Positions 1,485-10,618 of a stretch of DNA of 12,061 bases are shown here, piece by piece. Below the pieces are notes generated by a model. The model ran no database searches, was not told the DNA's origin, and worked only from the letters and a program-made list of their open reading frames with translations. The translations under genes were made by a program, and so were the position numbers. Each line of letters starts with the position of its first letter. Position 1 is the first letter of the stretch. Origin of the DNA: a virus (Duplodnaviria > Heunggongvirae > Uroviricota > Caudoviricetes); the IMG/VR virus record IMGVR_UViG_2648501669_000026, one strand, 5' to 3'.

Positions 1485-2360
1485 ATGGAAAACACAATCA
1501 CGGTATTAACACCCGTTTTTAAAAACTGCCCGGAAATGACCACGATTGCATCGTGGCCCCGTAGTTTTGTATATCAAAAGGGACAATCTGAAGTCTCTTT
1601 GGTTATTCGTCTGATTGATATCATTGCATCAAAATACATGCACAGACACGCCGAGGAATATTGCGATATTACAGGGTATTGCCTGCCGTTAGTGCATAAA
1701 ATCAGTGATGAAGAGATGCGGGATATTGCGGAAGGTTGCGATATTGCCATTACACGCATCCGGCAAAAAATCCGCGAAGCAGAAAATAAAGTGACTGCTC
1801 AGGAAAATAAAATCAGCGAATTGCGTAACGCTCAGTTACAGCCCACGTGTGCTGATAACCCTTATGGTGATCGGTATTCAGTAAAAGACGTTATCGAGCA
1901 TGAAATGCGTCTGCTTGAAAATGAGAAACGGAATTGCGAAAAGACACGCGCTGTCTGTGAGCAGGCTATACGCCTTATTGGTACGGGGAAAAACCTTTCT
2001 CATGATGGCGGTAATGCGTGGATTTTTGCCGCTTCGTTTGACGGACTGGAGCCGGAAACAAATCGCCGTATCAATATTTATAAAGAGATTATTTCGGCTG
2101 TCAGTGCGATCGTCACTTTACGCAATGAAGAAATTAAGCACATTCCTTATTCAGTAATGGCTAAATACAACCATTTACGGCAGGAATATATTAATGATGC
2201 ATTACGTACTCTGACGAAGCATTATTACAGCAACGGCAGTGAAACCATCCGCCATGCGATGACGCTACAGGAATACACCGGAATAAGTATGCCACGAATT
2301 GAACGGGATGCGGCGACCGCTTTGCTGTCTGTACATACCGAAAAGAAAGATATTGTTTAA
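1485..2360 (+). CDS. Hypothetical 291-aa protein with a central coiled-coil; capsid-scaffold-like only by position and size
   Basis: ATG 1485 lies 5 nt after the alpA stop, with GGAG 8 nt upstream. Heptad-like charged segment IRQKIREAENKVTAQENKISELRNAQLQ. No family recognised; it does not match my recollection of P2 GpO. Confidence 0.55.
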   Translation: MENTITVLTPVFKNCPEMTTIASWPRSFVYQKGQSEVSLVIRLIDIIASKYMHRHAEEYCDITGYCLPLVHKISDEEMRDIAEGCDIAITRIRQKIREAENKVTAQENKISELRNAQLQPTCADNPYGDRYSVKDVIEHEMRLLENEKRNCEKTRAVCEQAIRLIGTGKNLSHDGGNAWIFAASFDGLEPETNRRINIYKEIISAVSAIVTLRNEEIKHIPYSVMAKYNHLRQEYINDALRTLTKHYYSNGSETIRHAMTLQEYTGISMPRIERDAATALLSVHTEKKDIV

Positions 2361-2370
2361 GGGGAAATGT

Positions 2371-3423
2371 ATGTTTTTTAATATTAATGACCTGAAAGAT
2401 AAAGCCGGAAGCGTGCTTGAAAATATCAATATTTCATCTCCAGCGGTGAACGAAAATGAAACTGACATTAATAGCGCGCTTGCAGAAAAAGATCTTTACG
2501 CACGCATCAGTGCATACACACAAAAAAATCCGTTTGTGCATTTTATTTCGCCCTCTAACTGGCTTTCCGGGCAAATAAAATACCTGTCAGTTAATCCGCA
2601 TCAGTCCGCTATTAACCTTATTGGGGATGCGCGCTTATCCACCGGACGCGCAGAGGAAGGACGCTTTAGCCGTGCCATGGATATTAAAGGCTCTCCGATT
2701 GAATGCTATGAGATGGACTCATGCGAATATCTCGACTGGATTAACTTGGTTGTGATGGCCAATGTGGCGAATGACGACAAAAACCGCGATGCACTGCTGG
2801 GGATTTTGTGTGGCTATCTGACCAGCAAAATTTATCTGGACGATCTGCGGATTGGCTTTAACGGCAAGTCAGCGGCAACCTTCACCACACCGGACACCAA
2901 CCCGAACGGCGAGGATGTTGCGCCCGGCTGGCATGAAATTGCCAGGAAGGCAAGCGAAGGACGACAGATTATCAGCGATGCCATTACGCTGGGCGCAGGT
3001 GGTGATTTTCCGGGGGTAGATGCACTGGCGCAGCATCTGATTAAAACGAAAATTGCCGCACAGTGGCAGAACGATCCACGCCTTGTGGTGATGGTGGGAT
3101 CAGAACTTGCAGCTGCCGAACGTCTGCGTCTTTTCAGCACCGCAAACGGCGCAGGAGATACCGAAGCCGCCAGCGCATGGGGAAGCACCATTGCCGGGCA
3201 TTTTGCCTTTGTGCCACCGTTTATGCCGGGTAAACGTCTGGCTGTGACCACACTCCCGAACCTGCTGATTAACATCATTGAAGGCTCTTACCGCACAGAG
3301 TTCGATATGAACAAAGACACCAAACGCCTGAACATGCGGGCATGGCGTCATCAGGGCTACGGGCTGGCGGATGTGAATCTTTACGCGGCAGTGGATGAGG
3401 GCGCGATTACGCTTAATCCGTGA
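2371..3423 (+). CDS. Putative P2 GpN-family major capsid-like protein (tentative)
   Basis: ATG 2371 with AAGGGG 5-6 nt upstream; the ORF-track start at 2299 overlaps the preceding gene and is rejected. Collinear motifs GFNG, NP-x3-DVAPGW, GAGGDFPGVDAL and DPRLVVMVGSEL match P2 GpN as I recall it (GFNG, DVAVGW, GKGGDYASLDAL, DPDLVVIVGRQL). Size 350 aa versus 357 aa for GpN. Based on memory only. Confidence 0.55.
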   Translation: MFFNINDLKDKAGSVLENINISSPAVNENETDINSALAEKDLYARISAYTQKNPFVHFISPSNWLSGQIKYLSVNPHQSAINLIGDARLSTGRAEEGRFSRAMDIKGSPIECYEMDSCEYLDWINLVVMANVANDDKNRDALLGILCGYLTSKIYLDDLRIGFNGKSAATFTTPDTNPNGEDVAPGWHEIARKASEGRQIISDAITLGAGGDFPGVDALAQHLIKTKIAAQWQNDPRLVVMVGSELAAAERLRLFSTANGAGDTEAASAWGSTIAGHFAFVPPFMPGKRLAVTTLPNLLINIIEGSYRTEFDMNKDTKRLNMRAWRHQGYGLADVNLYAAVDEGAITLNP

Positions 3424-3633: not shown

Positions 3634-3817
3634 GTTTGACAGCCTGATTGTTAGAGCGGGTAGCCGCTATATTTCCGTAATGCGGTTTTTTTGTGCCCGT
3701 AATTCCACCCTACCCCGTATTATGGCGGGGCGTAATGGGGGAGCCTTTGCGCTCGCTGGTTTCTCTAACGCCAGTCTGTCAACCCTGTTACGTCCCGCCA
3801 CCATGTTTGACAGCGTG
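3634..3817 (+). promoter_or_regulatory. Untranslated leader with a 13-bp repeat triplet, P4 seqA/seqB/seqC-like
   Basis: GTTTGACAGCCTG (3634..3646) and GTTTGACAGCGTG (3805..3817) are direct repeats, 12/13 identical. CAGTCTGTCAACC (3772..3784) is an imperfect inverted copy (11/13 pairing). A short hairpin plus T7 run sits at 3680..3700. No SD-supported ORF between 3465 and 3856. Confidence 0.3.
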
Positions 3818-4996: not shown

Positions 4997-5019
4997 CCCA
5001 CTGCAAAAGGTGCAGTGGG
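4997..5019 (+). terminator. Stable hairpin between the 101-aa ORF and the primase start; weak terminator or translational control element
   Basis: CCCACTGCA (4997..5005), loop AAAGG, TGCAGTGGG (5011..5019), a 9-bp perfect stem. No T-run downstream on +; the 3' arm abuts the primase SD GGAGGG (5020..5025). Confidence 0.3.
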
Positions 5020-5032
5020 GAGGGATTTATAT

Positions 5033-7702
5033 ATGAAACATAACACCAGAAAAGAGATTATTAACCGTCTTATTCGTGATTACAACTTTAAAGAAGAAAA
5101 TAATTATCTTCGCTATGGTGTTTGTCCGCAATGTGGAAAGAAGGAACTGTTTACCAGTCTTGAGAGGCCGTACATCGTACACTGTGGCCGCGAAAATAAA
5201 TGCGGTGCAGACCTGCTGACCAAAGAACTTTACCCGGATGTGTTTTCGTCATGGTCAGATCGCTATATCAGTACGAAAGACGATCCATACGCAGCGGCGG
5301 TAGCTTATCTTCAGGAGGCGCGCAATATTGCTGTGGAGCCACTGAAAGGGGCATTTACTCAGGAGCGATACCAGGACAAGGAAAGCGGCGAACAGGCCGC
5401 TACTGTGCGTTTTACGCTGGCTGACGGCGTGTGGTGGGAGCGCATCATAGACCGACCGGAACGCTTCGCTCGCAAGGCGAATTTTTCCGGCAGTTACAAG
5501 GGGCTGTGGTGGGCTTATCCGGGAGCGGATTTAAGCAAGGCCAAAGAAATCTGGATTTGTGAGGGTATCTTTGATGCCATCAGCCTTAACCAGAATGGCA
5601 TTGCGGCCGTTTCTGTCATGTCTGCCGTGAACTACCCTGATAAATCGCTGGAAGAACTGGCGAAGCTGTGCGGGGATAATCCACGCCCGGTTATCGTGTG
5701 GGCGCTGGATAACGGGCGTGCGGGTGAGCGTTACGCGAAAAAACATGCAGAACGCAGCGCCGAAGACGGCTGGAGAACGGCGGCAGCATTACCAGGTAAA
5801 AACAGCAATAAACGCGACTGGAATGATTTACACATCGCCGGAAAGCTGCGTGGCCATGATGTGAAAAGATATCGTTATTACGGTGATTTATTGTTGGCGA
5901 AATCGCCGAGAGATAAGGCACTAATAATGTTTTCCTTTCGTGAGCGAAAGGAGTTTTATTTTCCCTTTGATAACCGTATTTTCTGGTTCAAGCTGGATAT
6001 TGAGCGCCATATGAAGGCTGTTGAGCGTGTCATTAATGAGCGAAATGTTGACGAAAATGAAGCGCGCAAAATTGCACTTAAGGAATCCGGTGCAGTAAAA
6101 GAAATCGCAAACTGTAACCCAGTACCGCTTTATTACATTCGAAACAATGACACGGATGAAGCATGGTATTACTTCCGTGTTACGTTCCCGGATGGTGCGA
6201 CGGTGAAAAACACCTTTACATCAGGTCAATTAACATCCGCATCTGAATTTAAAAAACGCCTGTTGCATGTGGCAAAAGGTGGTATTTATACCGGAACGAC
6301 TGCGCACCTTGATGCATTAATAAAAAATGACCTTCCCGCAATAAAAAATGTTATCGGTCAGGATTTTATCGGATACAACAAAGAGATTGGCGCATGGCTG
6401 TTTAATGATGTCGCGGTTTGTAATGGTAAAACCTACGAAATCAATGAAGAGGATTATTTTGAAATTGATGGCATAAACGCAAAACCATTGAATAAAAAAC
6501 CAATATTGCAGATTAACTATAAAAAACCGGATGAATTTACAACGTCCTGGGTGGAAGATCTCTGGCTGGCGTTTGGTGAAAAGGGAATTATTACCCTGGC
6601 CTTCTGGCTGGGTTCGTTGTTCAGCGAACAAATCAGGCAGAAAAACGCATCTTACCCCTTTCTTGAGATTACCGGAGAGCCTGGAACGGGTAAAACAACG
6701 CTGATTGATTTTTGCTGGCGTTTGTGTGGCCGTGACAACTATGAAGGTGTTGATCCAACCAAAGGATCGGAATCAGGCTGGAAGCGAACTTTTGGACAGG
6801 TCGCCGGATTACCTGTTGTTCTGATTGAGGCAGACCGGGGGGACAATGCGCAAAAAAGAGGTGCGTTTGACTTTGATAACCTGAAAAGCCTCTATAACGG
6901 CGGTGGTATTGGGGTACGTGGTGTTAAAACTAATGATAACGCCACATATGACCCTGTTTTTAAAGGGGCTGTCGTGATTGCGCAGAATGCCACGGTAAAT
7001 GCCTCATCGGCAATTATCGAGCGTCTGGTACGTATATACACCGATAAAAAACGCCACTCACCAGATAGCCGACTGGCAGCAAAACGGCTGGAGCTTTACC
7101 CCGTTGAGCAGGTATCAGGTTTTATCCATCGGGCAGTAAGCCAGGAGCGGGCGATTATGGATTTGTTTATGGCACTCTCGGATCCTGAAACAGCCCGCCT
7201 TTACAGTTGCGAAAATATTCGCCATCAGCGTATTGCCAAAAATCACGCGCAACTAATTGCACTGGTCAGGGTGCTGAAATGCGTTATTGATATCCCGGAT
7301 GAATGGCTTGATGCCACATGTCTGGAACTGGAGCGAATGGCAGAGGAACAGGCTAAAGCGGTAATGGATGACTTGCCGGAAGTGATGGCGTTCTGGGAGG
7401 CGTTCGACTATCTGGACGGCATAACAGCATACGGCGTAAATCATTTTGGCAAGGGACGGCAGAATGAGTTTGCCGTCAGTATCCCGCAACTTGAGCAGGT
7501 TGCCGCCGTTCACCATGTGAAGATCCAAACCAATCCCGAAATGATAAAGCTTCTCAAGGCTGGCCGTTCTCGATCGCTGATTGGATACAAGCCCGTCCGT
7601 AGCGAGGTATCCAGACAGGCGAACGCCGGGAGGGGGATAGCCGAGGCCAGAGAGAAGGAGGTATTGAAATGCTGGATATTTAGTAACAAGGAGGGGGCTT
7701 AA
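5033..7702 (+). CDS. Bifunctional DNA primase/helicase (N-terminal zinc ribbon, TOPRIM primase, P-loop NTPase), P4 alpha-like replication protein
   Basis: ATG 5033 with GGAGGG 8 nt upstream; the ORF-track GTG at 5015 lies inside the hairpin. Zinc ribbon CPQCG...HCGRENKCG. TOPRIM motifs WICEGIFDAISL and VWALDNGRAGERYA. Walker A GEPGTGKTT and Walker B-like VVLIEAD. 889 aa. Confidence 0.9.
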   Translation: MKHNTRKEIINRLIRDYNFKEENNYLRYGVCPQCGKKELFTSLERPYIVHCGRENKCGADLLTKELYPDVFSSWSDRYISTKDDPYAAAVAYLQEARNIAVEPLKGAFTQERYQDKESGEQAATVRFTLADGVWWERIIDRPERFARKANFSGSYKGLWWAYPGADLSKAKEIWICEGIFDAISLNQNGIAAVSVMSAVNYPDKSLEELAKLCGDNPRPVIVWALDNGRAGERYAKKHAERSAEDGWRTAAALPGKNSNKRDWNDLHIAGKLRGHDVKRYRYYGDLLLAKSPRDKALIMFSFRERKEFYFPFDNRIFWFKLDIERHMKAVERVINERNVDENEARKIALKESGAVKEIANCNPVPLYYIRNNDTDEAWYYFRVTFPDGATVKNTFTSGQLTSASEFKKRLLHVAKGGIYTGTTAHLDALIKNDLPAIKNVIGQDFIGYNKEIGAWLFNDVAVCNGKTYEINEEDYFEIDGINAKPLNKKPILQINYKKPDEFTTSWVEDLWLAFGEKGIITLAFWLGSLFSEQIRQKNASYPFLEITGEPGTGKTTLIDFCWRLCGRDNYEGVDPTKGSESGWKRTFGQVAGLPVVLIEADRGDNAQKRGAFDFDNLKSLYNGGGIGVRGVKTNDNATYDPVFKGAVVIAQNATVNASSAIIERLVRIYTDKKRHSPDSRLAAKRLELYPVEQVSGFIHRAVSQERAIMDLFMALSDPETARLYSCENIRHQRIAKNHAQLIALVRVLKCVIDIPDEWLDATCLELERMAEEQAKAVMDDLPEVMAFWEAFDYLDGITAYGVNHFGKGRQNEFAVSIPQLEQVAAVHHVKIQTNPEMIKLLKAGRSRSLIGYKPVRSEVSRQANAGRGIAEAREKEVLKCWIFSNKEGA

Positions 7703-7704
7703 GT

Positions 7705-8706
7705 ATGTCGATCAGAAAGATGGATGATGGGCGATGGCTGCTCGATATCAGGCCACAAGGGGCGTACGGCAAACGGATACGTAAAATTTTTGTCAGGAAA
7801 GGGAGTGCAGAGGCCTTCGAACAATATATTTTACAGAATTTCCATAACAACCCATGGCTGGCTAAACCTGCTGATCGGCGGCGATTATCAGAGCTGCTTG
7901 ATACATGGTGGATGCTTGATGGCCGTAACCAGGCTTACGGCGATACCTACAGGATCCGGCTGGAGAAAGTGATTCGTGAAATGGGAGATCCGCGCGCCAG
8001 CCAGATGACGCAAAAATTTATGCTTGAGTATCGGTCAGAGAAATTACAGGCCGGCTTAATGCCATCCAGCATTAATCGTGACTTGTGCGTTCTGTCTACC
8101 ATGTTCACGGTGCTGATTGAAGCAGGGGTCTTTCACAACCCGAACCCTGTGCGCAGTATACGCAAGCTAAAAATTCAGAATACAGAGATGGCCTTTCTTT
8201 CTGATGATGAGATTGAACGGCTTCTTGAGCGACTGGAGGGGGATGCGCGTCGTGTTGCCATTCTGTGTCTTTCTACTGGTGCCCGATGGAGTGAAGCATC
8301 GGAACTACGTGGAGAGCATATCGTTGGCAACCGTGTGACGTTTTTTAACACCAAAAACGGAAAATCCCGCTCGGTTCCTGTGGCGGATTCGGTCGTGCCG
8401 CTGATTAAAACCCGTCGGACGGGGTTGTTGTATCAGGTTGATTATCTGGAGTTCCGGGAGATTCTTCAGGAGGTTAAGCCGGATTTGCCGAAGGGGCAGG
8501 CTACGCATGTTATGCGTCATACATTTGCCACACACTTTATGATGAATGGTGGGAATATCGTTACATTACAACGGATTCTTGGACATGCGACTATCCAGCA
8601 AACGATGACTTATGCGCATTTTTCTCCCGACTATCTGGCGGATGCCATGAGGTTTAACCCGATAGCTAACATGGCATTCACTGAACAAAAAGAGCCAGCA
8701 GAGTAA
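7705..8706 (+). CDS. int: Tyrosine recombinase / integrase, P2 Int-like
   Basis: 333 aa. Catalytic-domain motifs AILCLSTGARWSEA, HVMRHTFATHFM and LGHATIQQTMTYAHF; N-terminal DGRWLLDIRPQG...GKRIRK. Close to P2 Int in length and motifs as I recall it. ATG is 2 nt after the primase stop and shares the SD AAGGAGGGGG. Confidence 0.92.
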   Translation: MSIRKMDDGRWLLDIRPQGAYGKRIRKIFVRKGSAEAFEQYILQNFHNNPWLAKPADRRRLSELLDTWWMLDGRNQAYGDTYRIRLEKVIREMGDPRASQMTQKFMLEYRSEKLQAGLMPSSINRDLCVLSTMFTVLIEAGVFHNPNPVRSIRKLKIQNTEMAFLSDDEIERLLERLEGDARRVAILCLSTGARWSEASELRGEHIVGNRVTFFNTKNGKSRSVPVADSVVPLIKTRRTGLLYQVDYLEFREILQEVKPDLPKGQATHVMRHTFATHFMMNGGNIVTLQRILGHATIQQTMTYAHFSPDYLADAMRFNPIANMAFTEQKEPAE

Positions 8707-8736
8707 CCCGCAGAACGCTACATTCACAGCAAAAGA

Positions 8737-8761
8737 GGTCAGTTTTCCACTGGCCTTTTTT
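8737..8761 (+). terminator. Rho-independent terminator after int
   Basis: Stem GGTCAGT (8737..8743) / ACTGGCC (8749..8755) with one G-U pair, loop TTTCC, then six T (8756..8761). Confidence 0.7.
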
Positions 8762-8953
8762 GTTGGCCAAAGCCAACGGTAACAGCAATGCAATGGTGGC
8801 CATATTGCAGCGGTGCCGCCATCAATTTTTTTGCTCTCCCTTCCTGATTATCAGGAAAGAGTCAAATAGTGGCGAGATACATTTTAATCACAGAGAGTTA
8901 ATGAGAGTGAGACATAGTGAGTGAGTTTAATTAACATTTTAAAGGGTTGCGCT

Positions 8954-9277
8954 AAAATCCGGGGGGGGGTGCGGAAACGGGTTACAAAGGTTACAAACAG
9001 AAAAATATATTATATATCAATATATTATAATACATTTAAAAGGTTACAAACGGGTTACAACAGGGTTACATGTAACCTTTATGTAGTGGTTACTGTTGGT
9101 TACAGGTTAAATTTATAATTAATTGATAATTAATCTGTTTTTTAGAGCTGTAACCTCGTGTAACCTTCTGTAACCTCAAAAAGGTTACAAGCAATTTCAT
9201 TTAAAATCATGATGTTAATGTGTGTTTTAAGGAGCTGTAACCTTTGTAACCCGTTTCCGCACCCCCTACCGGATTTT
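8954..9277. repeat. Iteron array bounded by a long inverted repeat; putative origin of replication of the element
   Basis: 13 exact heptamers. GGTTACA on + at 8980, 8989, 9042, 9053, 9064, 9098, 9183; TGTAACC at 9071, 9149, 9159, 9169, 9236, 9245. Three are phased at exactly 10 bp (9149/9159/9169). Palindrome GGTTACATGTAACC at 9064..9077. 30-bp perfect inverted repeat 8966..8995 / 9236..9265, extending to 42 bp (8954..8995 / 9236..9277) with 2 mismatches. AT-rich core 9001..9040 (2 G/C in 40 nt). Confidence 0.6.
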
Positions 9278-9415
9278 GAGGCAGAGCCCAAAAAACACTG
9301 GTAAGACCAGAAACATAAAATTAACACAACAAAACTGAATGAAATGACTGTTACCCCCCCGTGATGACGGGTAAAATCAGGTCAGGCAATCAGCGTTTAT
9401 TCATGAGGTGCCGGA

Positions 9416-9670
9416 GTGCGCAGACAGAAAGCGCGGTGTTTTTGCTGTGGTGAGCGCGCAGTGATTGAAAAGACCGTCTGGAAAGATGATCGGTTTGCTG
9501 ACGTGTATTACCGTTGCAAGCGTCTTGAGTGCGGACATACCTGGGTAATGAATCTGACCTACTCGCACACGCTGACCCCCAGCGGACTGGAGAACGGCGT
9601 GTTGAAGCTGTTGATCGAACGAATGCGCCCGGAGGAAAAACAAATGGCGCTGGAACTACTACAGGCCTGA
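9416..9670 (+). CDS. Ogr/Delta-family zinc-finger transcriptional activator-like protein
   Basis: GTG 9416 with GAGGTG 5 nt upstream. C-x2-C, 22 residues, C-x4-C (CFCCGERA...CKRLEC), the same cysteine spacing as P2 Ogr as I recall it. 84 aa. Confidence 0.7.
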   Translation: MRRQKARCFCCGERAVIEKTVWKDDRFADVYYRCKRLECGHTWVMNLTYSHTLTPSGLENGVLKLLIERMRPEEKQMALELLQA

Positions 9671-9687
9671 GGATACCAGCCAAAAGA

Positions 9688-9715
9688 AAACCCGCAGCTT
9701 TTACACGGCGGGTTT
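9688..9715. terminator. Hairpin downstream of the ogr-like gene, bidirectional-looking
   Basis: AAACCCGC (9688..9695), 12-nt loop, GCGGGTTT (9708..9715). The better U-tract is on the - strand (TTTTCTTTTG from 9681..9690). Confidence 0.4.
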
Positions 9716-10206
9716 GTGATGTTCATGACTGCAGATAGGGTGCCGTTCCGGCCTTTACCCTGGCAACCGATTGACGGGGAAGTTGACTTCCCCGTCGCGG
9801 TTCCTTACTGTGTAGACTTACATTGTAAGAATGCCGCAATTTCCGTTCCTGCAAACCTGAATCGCAACTCACAAGGTGATGTGTGGAGGATCCAGATTAT
9901 CGCTACTGCGGTTAAACACAGTAGCAGGGTTTTTAACGGAATTTGCGTCATAGCGCTTGCTCCTTTGGTGGAGAGGCGCTAACCTTCTACTTGTCAAGGT
10001 ACGAAGTGTTAGGGCCTCGGGTTAACATTAAAGTTGACTCGGGGCCTTTCCACATCTGGCCTTCGGGTATTCCCTCCGACCATCAGCCGAAAGGCACCCG
10101 CAGCGATTCTAGCCTGGTTGCCATACCCGCATCAATCACCCGCCACATCGCTTTATCGCTCGCAAATCAGCAACCTGACGCTACTTTACGTCGCTCTGTC
10201 CGGCAT

Positions 10207-10618
10207 TTTACGTCACCTCATCGCACCGCGTTTTATTCGTCCCTTCTGACCGTTCTGCCTCTCCCTGTTGTGAAGTTTTTTTCAGTTTCATTTTGTTCGC
10301 CGTATGCCGTCAGGGCGCGTCACGTCTGGATTTTCGCGAAATGCTGCCGGGCGTGAAATTCTGCCACCGGGCCAAACAGCCTCACGTAAAGTATGAAAAA
10401 GCCTTAAATATCATGAAAGTAGTCACGCGCAGCACAAAAAAAGAACTGAAAACCGGGAAGAAAAATTGCAAAAAATTTCACTGAATGAAATTTTGCTTTT
10501 GCACGAATCCCCAGAACTGACGCACCCTGCCAGCTATTTTTTCACACCAGAAAACTGAAAAAGTGTTTCGACACGAAACCCGCGGGTTGGAGGGGGTAGC
10601 GCGGTTTACGTCACCTCA
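10207..10618. repeat. 14-bp exact direct repeat TTTACGTCACCTCA (two copies) with several shorter related copies
   Basis: Exact copies at 10207..10220 and 10605..10618, 398 bp apart. Related TTTACG(T/C)(C/G) cores at 10185..10193, 10622..10632, 10636..10644 and 10740..10748; inverted copy at 10383..10390. Confidence 0.6.

Follow-up and report, generated by a model that had tools for sequence, protein, structure and literature searches.

We analysed a 12,061-base stretch of DNA (the window), an island of about 12 kb from an Escherichia coli chromosome that adjoins hpt, and conclude from sequence comparison that positions 8954-9277 are very probably the vegetative replication origin of this phage satellite, which is integrated between gcd and hpt. 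The segment is a dense array of the heptamer GGTTACA enclosed by a long inverted repeat, and a preliminary description of the same DNA had proposed it as the origin for the primase-helicase encoded by the island (5015-7702, + strand; 895 amino acids). Comparative evidence supports this proposal, since the array-bearing module and the primase family co-occur whichever of the two is searched for, and in one polarity (one locus, L070, is undecided); the module is independent of int2, the recombinase gene that lies between it and the primase gene here; the putative initiator has SaPIbov1 Rep and Cch as structural relatives; and the layout matches both the experimentally tested origin of EcCICFT073 and the general origin plan of Staphylococcus aureus pathogenicity islands (SaPIs).

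Anatomy of the repeat array

GGTTACA occurs 14 times in the window, and 13 of these copies lie within 8980-9251. The whole window would be expected to hold about one copy (1.14), and a count of 14 was reached by no sequence among 200 shuffles. Seven copies of the array are on the + strand (8980, 8989, 9042, 9053, 9064, 9098 and 9183) and six on the - strand (9071, 9149, 9159, 9169, 9236 and 9245), while two further sites carry a single mismatch (9088, GGTTACT; 9105, GGTTAAA). From left to right, neighbouring sites are spaced by 9, 53, 11, 11, 7, 17, 10, 7, 44, 10, 10, 14, 53 and 9 bp, so that the two ends of the array mirror each other (9, 53 ... 53, 9). The borders are formed by an inverted repeat (8954-8995 and 9236-9277) whose 42-nt arms are complementary at 40 of 42 positions (95%), contain a perfect core of 31 nt and are separated by 240 nt; single-strand folding of the array gave z = -14, a value that restates this inverted repeat. 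Thus, the preliminary account of 13 exact heptamers in both orientations, mostly spaced by 9-11 bp with three phased at exactly 10 bp (9149, 9159 and 9169), of an inverted repeat at the borders and of a 40-bp stretch with about 5% GC was borne out. It had also placed a palindrome at the centre: the perfect 14-bp palindrome GGTTACATGTAACC (9064-9077) is real, but "central" is a loose term for a site that lies to the left of the module centre at about 9116.

The left arm (8954-8995, + strand) comprises a G-run (8961-8969), a CGGAAA box (8972-8977) and the terminal pair of iterons (8980 and 8989, spaced by 9 bp). It is followed by a first AT-rich block (8996-9041), a candidate DNA-unwinding element that includes the most AT-rich 40-mer of the window (9001-9040, 5% GC). 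The inner left iteron set (9042-9111, + strand) opens with three direct copies at 11-bp spacing (9042, 9053 and 9064), a conserved layout, runs through the palindrome, in which two copies stand head to head, and continues with the sites at 9088, 9098 and 9105. A central AT-rich block (9112-9148), which holds a conserved TTGAT-containing stretch, leads to the inner right iteron set (9149-9189, - strand), made up of the three inverted copies phased at 10 bp and the direct copy at 9183. A third AT-rich block (9190-9235) precedes the right arm (9236-9277, - strand), with its terminal inverted iteron pair (9236 and 9245), a TTTCCG box (9254-9259) and a C-run (9262-9266). The outer iteron pairs and the inner triplets are mutually inverted, and the three AT-rich blocks between them reach down to 5% GC. 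At 9205-9217, within the third block, the element AATCATGATGTTA deviates at one position from the consensus WATCARNNNNTTR of integration host factor (IHF); its ATCA and TTA columns are conserved in 12 of 12 aligned modules, and the consensus is matched perfectly in L012, L015, L016, L017 and L080. Judging by this motif, IHF might bind here.

Association of the module with the primase-helicase

A profile built from 12 modules was run over 85 loci with primase homologs. The module was detected in 26 of them, from Escherichia to Vibrio and Mycoavidus, and always downstream of the primase gene, 148-2890 bp past its stop codon; in L012-L015, L017, L025, L027, L028 and L061 it starts 148-470 bp past the stop. 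Its polarity relative to the primase was the same in 25 of the 26 loci, where the forward match was far stronger, whereas both strands scored alike in L070 (Mycoavidus), which leaves that locus undecided. In the reverse search, the arm signature alone retrieved 17 loci from viral contigs, and a primase gene lay directly upstream and co-oriented in 16 of the 16 that could be assessed; the 17th contig ends too early for its neighbour to be judged. Across the 26 loci and 16 viral contigs, the primase was the only constant neighbour of the module. This bears on the alternative that the repeats have a regulatory or titrating role instead of being an origin, and act as operator or decoy for Ogr/Delta, AlpA or a helper-phage protein. 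The array does lie upstream of an ogr/delta-like gene (9416-9670) and dense repeats are able to titrate DNA-binding proteins, but no TGT-N12-ACA dyad of the Ogr type is present within it and an ogr homolog went undetected in most module-bearing loci, including L012-L019, L027 and L061. We consider such a function very improbable, and the earlier suggestion that the array serves as a decoy for a helper protein found no support.

In E. coli, the array was present in 67 of 5,426 complete genomes (about 1%). Each of the 60 genomes listed among these 67 has a single collinear match covering at least 93% of the query, never inverted and with no annotated feature beneath it. The orientation of the array would be expected to vary if it were an invertible DNA switch in which int2 flips the 240-bp segment between the 42-nt repeats and thereby switches the ogr/delta-like gene. 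Long inverted repeats indeed adjoin a tyrosine recombinase gene here, and a promoter-like site is found at 8931-8958; however, the asymmetric inner layout kept the same polarity in 25 of the 26 loci (L070 being undecided) and in the 16 assessable viral contigs, and the module also exists where neither a recombinase nor ogr is nearby, which makes a switch extremely unlikely. Such a fimS-like promoter switch was rejected, as every case that could be judged among these E. coli genomes, loci and contigs showed one and the same orientation.

In an alignment of the arrays of five E. coli islands, the GTTACA cores were invariant whereas the spacers varied, and both arms of the inverted repeat changed together in E. 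coli islands (GGAAACG/CGTTTCC to GCAAAGC/GCTTTGC). L002, L004 and L010 have CGCAAA in both arms; therefore, the arms evolve in concert. Across genera, the modules share one grammar: a G-run, a CGGAAA box, an iteron pair with 9-bp spacing, an AT block and an iteron triplet ending in a head-to-head palindrome make up the left half; a second AT block, inverted iterons with one direct copy and a third AT block containing ATCA-N5-TTA, which fits the IHF consensus, make up the right half; and an inverted iteron pair, a TTTCCG box and a C-run form the right end. Measured from box to box, all modules with both end boxes identified are 266-288 bp long, and the iteron reads RGTTACA, YGTTACA, YATTACA or YCTTACA depending on the lineage. 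Vibrio (L042) and the betaproteobacterium Mycoavidus (L080), whose primases show just 42-44% identity, have the same plan, end boxes included. From Escherichia to Vibrio, the CGGAAA/TTTCCG boxes that flank the terminal iteron pairs stay constant while the iteron sequence shifts between lineages. Tandem copies were observed in two loci: Providencia rustigianii L017 has half a module and two full ones (8754-8905, 9007-9319 and 9404-9697), with CGTTACA and then GGTTACA iterons, and Xenorhabdus innexi L016 has one full module and a half (9744-10048 and 10209-10336). These may be traces of recombination between islands.

The proposed initiator consists of an N-terminal Zn-ribbon, a DnaG-type Toprim primase, an AAA+ helicase resembling Cch and SaPIbov1 Rep and a variable C-terminal domain. 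Searches of the primase sequence against the PDB returned weak DnaG matches only, and the informative comparison was that of folds, by which the protein is related to SaPIbov1 Rep and Cch and represents a Rep-type AAA+ helicase with a putative DNA-reading domain at its C-terminus. From this architecture and the repeat layout we infer how the origin might work. Induction of the island would lead to production of the 895-amino-acid primase-helicase, whose variable C-terminal domain would bind the GGTTACA iterons. Since the outer pairs and the inner triplets face one another, a pair of helicase rings would be expected to assemble face to face on either side of AT-rich DNA. This DNA would then melt and, in the way described for SaPI Rep proteins, the rings would load with no need of a separate loader, after which the fused DnaG-type primase would prime synthesis. 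More speculatively, extra signals for loading, priming or bending may reside in the invariant CGGAAA end boxes and the IHF-like element.

Several observations weigh against the assignment of the array as the origin for this protein. In the window, the array is not adjacent to the primase gene but lies 1.26 kb from its stop codon, a gap that is explained by the insertion of int2. No module was detected within the flanks examined in 59 of the 85 loci, mostly from GC-rich hosts and an enterobacterial clade (L020-L024, L026 and L029); these loci presumably use other sites, or sites beyond those flanks. Nor does the iteron class cleanly track the primase: the primases of L015 (GG iterons) and L017 (CG iterons, plus a tandem GG module) are 96% identical, and a comparison of iteron class with the C-terminal domain of the primase showed no clear covariation, near-identical primases being found beside GG and CG modules and L017 carrying both. 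Furthermore, the putative winged-helix, DNA-reading character of that domain is predicted from fold similarity and secondary structure only.

The recombinase gene between primase and array

The preliminary description had overlooked a tyrosine recombinase gene located between the primase gene and the array. This gene, int2 (7705-8706, + strand), begins 3 nt past the primase stop and encodes a 333-amino-acid protein with Pfam Int_N and Phage_integrase domains that is 88% identical to the Int of P88-type P2-like phages; the catalytic domain is nearly identical, and the N-terminal 60 amino acids are the most diverged part. Each related island has an integrase of its own at the left end (400-420 amino acids, just beyond this window), and int2 is a second tyrosine recombinase in the islands that carry it. 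Its location raises the alternative that the array serves int2 as an attachment or recombination site, in which case the heptamers would be arm-type sites for the diverged N-terminal domain and the arrangement would mirror the P2-type int-attP-ogr order. In line with this, int2 ends 250 bp upstream of the array, the relative order matches the int-attP-hok-ogr of P88-type phages, and it is the N-terminal part that differs most from the phage Int.

The distribution of the module argues against this alternative. A copy of int2 lies between primase and origin in the Escherichia, Kluyvera, Erwinia and Izhakiella lineage, whereas there is none between primase and module in L012-L019, L025, L027, L028 and L061, and no int2 homolog was found within 6 kb of the array in Pectobacterium, Samsonia, Klebsiella indica and Enterobacter (L012-L014, L018, L019 and L028). 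In Providencia and Proteus (L015, L027 and L061), the GGTTACA array lies 200-300 bp past the primase stop with no intervening gene, while the Int homolog of the island lies on the opposite strand at a distance of about 5 kb and has TGTGGAC repeats of its own. Such separate TGTGGAC arm repeats are also found beside int in L017, and GTTACA is absent beside the int genes of L015, L017 and L061. Moreover, in L001, L002 and L010 the int2 product is only 56-60% identical to the copy in the window, yet the array and the 250-bp spacer are conserved. The arm repeats of P88-type attP sites, which we derived from a phage and a prophage copy, read TGTCCAT; neither this motif nor the P2-type TGTGGAC is present in the window. 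Finally, related islands are integrated either between gcd and hpt or between tRNA-Arg and dsdC, and the array is internal to the island at both sites. An attachment site for int2 thus appears highly unlikely. Because arrays occur without int2, int2 alleles vary and the arm motifs are absent, we regard int2 as an insertion between primase and array and not as the partner of the array; a duplicated 3' end of the primase gene, which would mark the insertion, was looked for and not found. The array was rejected as a P2-type integrase attP, given the lack of Int arm repeats, its internal position at both insertion sites and its occurrence without int. As a separate observation, alleles of int2 with only 60% identity have replaced one another between flanks that stayed conserved.

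A non-coding spacer of 250 bp (8706-8953) separates int2 from the array and is about 95% conserved, even beside different int2 alleles. It contains a terminator-like hairpin (8736-8761, + strand; AGGTCAG/CTGGCCT followed by T6), read from the sequence, that would end the primase-int2 transcription unit; this hairpin is conserved across int2 alleles and was not called by a consensus scan. The spacer also holds further short palindromes, and the promoter-like site at 8931-8958 (10 of 12 matching positions) points into the array.

Relation to known satellites and organization of the island

The kind of element described here, an iteron origin beside the initiator gene of a satellite, is well known, and as in other Rep-ori modules of SaPIs and PICIs (phage-inducible chromosomal islands), the candidate origin lies directly downstream of rep (pri-rep) with opposed short iterons flanking AT-rich DNA. 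A close parallel is the Gram-negative PICI EcCICFT073, whose origin in the pri-rep/ori module was examined by a plasmid maintenance assay (Fillol-Salom et al., 2018, PMC6092414). Both islands have the order int, alpA, Icd-like gene, small open reading frames (ORFs), primase, ori, and the EcCICFT073 origin, as read from its sequence, spans about 230 bp 3' of the primase gene and has inverted terminal iteron pairs at 9 bp, an AT block and, inside, an iteron triplet phased at 10 bp. However, its iteron is TGTCTACC/GGTAGACA instead of GGTTACA, its primase is an unrelated 584-amino-acid protein that is similar only around the P-loop, and it has no CGGAAA end boxes, no G/C runs and no recombinase gene between primase and origin. 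Its helper is lambdoid, whereas the helper here is presumably P2-like. Of the 60 listed genomes with the array, none belongs to the four strains with published E. coli Pri-Rep alleles.

SaPI Reps act as initiator-helicases that load themselves and whose C-terminal winged helix reads iterons of 5-6 nt (Qiao et al., 2022, PMC9371898); SaPI iterons follow closely downstream of rep on both sides of an AT-rich centre, no fewer than two per side and pointing in opposite directions (PMC9371898). The origins of SaPIbov1, SaPI1 and SaPI5 (PMC9371898) differ in belonging to Gram-positive elements and in having 5-6 nt iterons of other sequence. In contrast to SaPIs, the primase part here is of the DnaG/Toprim type and fused to the helicase, and the module is characterized by three AT blocks, fixed end boxes and an inverted repeat of 42 nt at its termini. 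The staphylococcal cassette chromosome mec (SCCmec), the source of the Cch helicase, is a different type of element from a different host.

Like the island, P4 is a satellite with a Zn-ribbon/Toprim/P-loop primase-helicase, alpha, of the same domain order; in pairwise comparison the similarity was weak, the three patches being collinear at 21-35% identity with a best E value of 5e-4, and there was a weak hint of DUF5906. P4 alpha is said to bind type I iterons through a C-terminal winged-helix domain. The crr site of P4 lies immediately 3' of the alpha terminator and has octamer iterons in both orientations, including 9-bp pairs, and both elements carry ogr/delta-like, AlpA-like and C4/CI-type RNA genes. 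As the preliminary description had held, however, the heptamer is not the P4 type I iteron, which is the octamer TGTTCACC according to the P4 annotation and sequence, and crr consists of two 120-bp direct repeats, not an inverted repeat. As a further difference, the protein resembles alpha in patches only, at 21-32%. P4 needs two cis sites 4.5 kb apart, ori and crr, the latter next to alpha. By analogy, the array might be bound by the primase-helicase and nevertheless be an accessory cis site resembling crr, or a copy-control or incompatibility locus, with replication starting elsewhere; the extra partial or full tandem copies in L016 and L017 could be read in the same way. Yet the window has no second GTTACA cluster, the best 300-bp stretch outside the array containing one copy, and the module itself holds the AT-rich blocks expected of a melting site, so that an accessory role is very unlikely.

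A full-text search for GGTTACA together with iteron found no description of the module in the searchable literature, and the region is unannotated in genome records. Specific to this family are the iteron sequence, the CGGAAA end boxes, the fixed length, the fused DnaG/Cch-type initiator and the insertion of int2. The module leaves the current understanding of satellite replication unchanged; for a satellite family that about 1% of complete E. coli genomes and many other Proteobacteria harbour, it provides a precise candidate origin. Together with the natural iteron variants (GG, CG, CA or CC before TTACA), it offers a system for studying how self-loading helicases of the Rep/Cch type read origins in Gram-negative hosts, and module and initiator could yield compact, orthogonal two-part replicons. 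A further-reaching idea, possible in our view though doubtful, is that the module represents a distinct ancient origin class that travels with the fused DnaG-primase/Cch-Rep-helicase across Gamma- and Betaproteobacteria as a self-contained two-part replicon. Its length would be fixed at 266-288 bp, its CGGAAA boxes beside the G/C runs would be loading or priming signals for the fused primase, and its arms would be kept identical by concerted evolution, while phage-type integrases, by inserting recurrently between initiator and origin, would link replication with recombination such as multimer resolution or secondary integration.

In its gene order (int, alpA, Icd-like, primase, repeats), the island agrees with Gram-negative PICI satellites, EcCICFT073 among them. 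An ORF of 346 amino acids (1-1041) that comes straight after the left-end integrase had no match in Pfam, PHROGs or NCBIfam; it differs from island to island and may be a cargo or defence gene. It is followed by an AlpA-like regulator and, at 1485-3423, by a 291-amino-acid protein without known family and a homolog of the P2-family major capsid protein (Pfam E value 6.5e-44), which may serve to redirect capsid size or to interfere; L003 has the capsid gene on the opposite side of the origin. Downstream of the array, the ogr/delta-like gene is followed by Hok/Gef and a hypothetical gene. The segment with int2, the ogr/delta-like gene and Hok/Gef (7742-10111) resembles the att-proximal genes of P88-type Peduoviridae phages at 77-89% nucleotide identity, and the right part of the island looks like a captured phage end, which hints at a P2/P88-type phage as helper; the P2 cos 19-mer had no match in the window with up to 3 mismatches allowed. 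Between the capsid homolog and the primase gene, a C4 antisense RNA (3718-3805, + strand; Rfam, 72.8 bits against a gathering score of 45) lies just upstream of the Icd-like ORF, which is followed by several small ORFs, and this pairing suggests an RNA immunity or control circuit of the P1/P4 style in the island.
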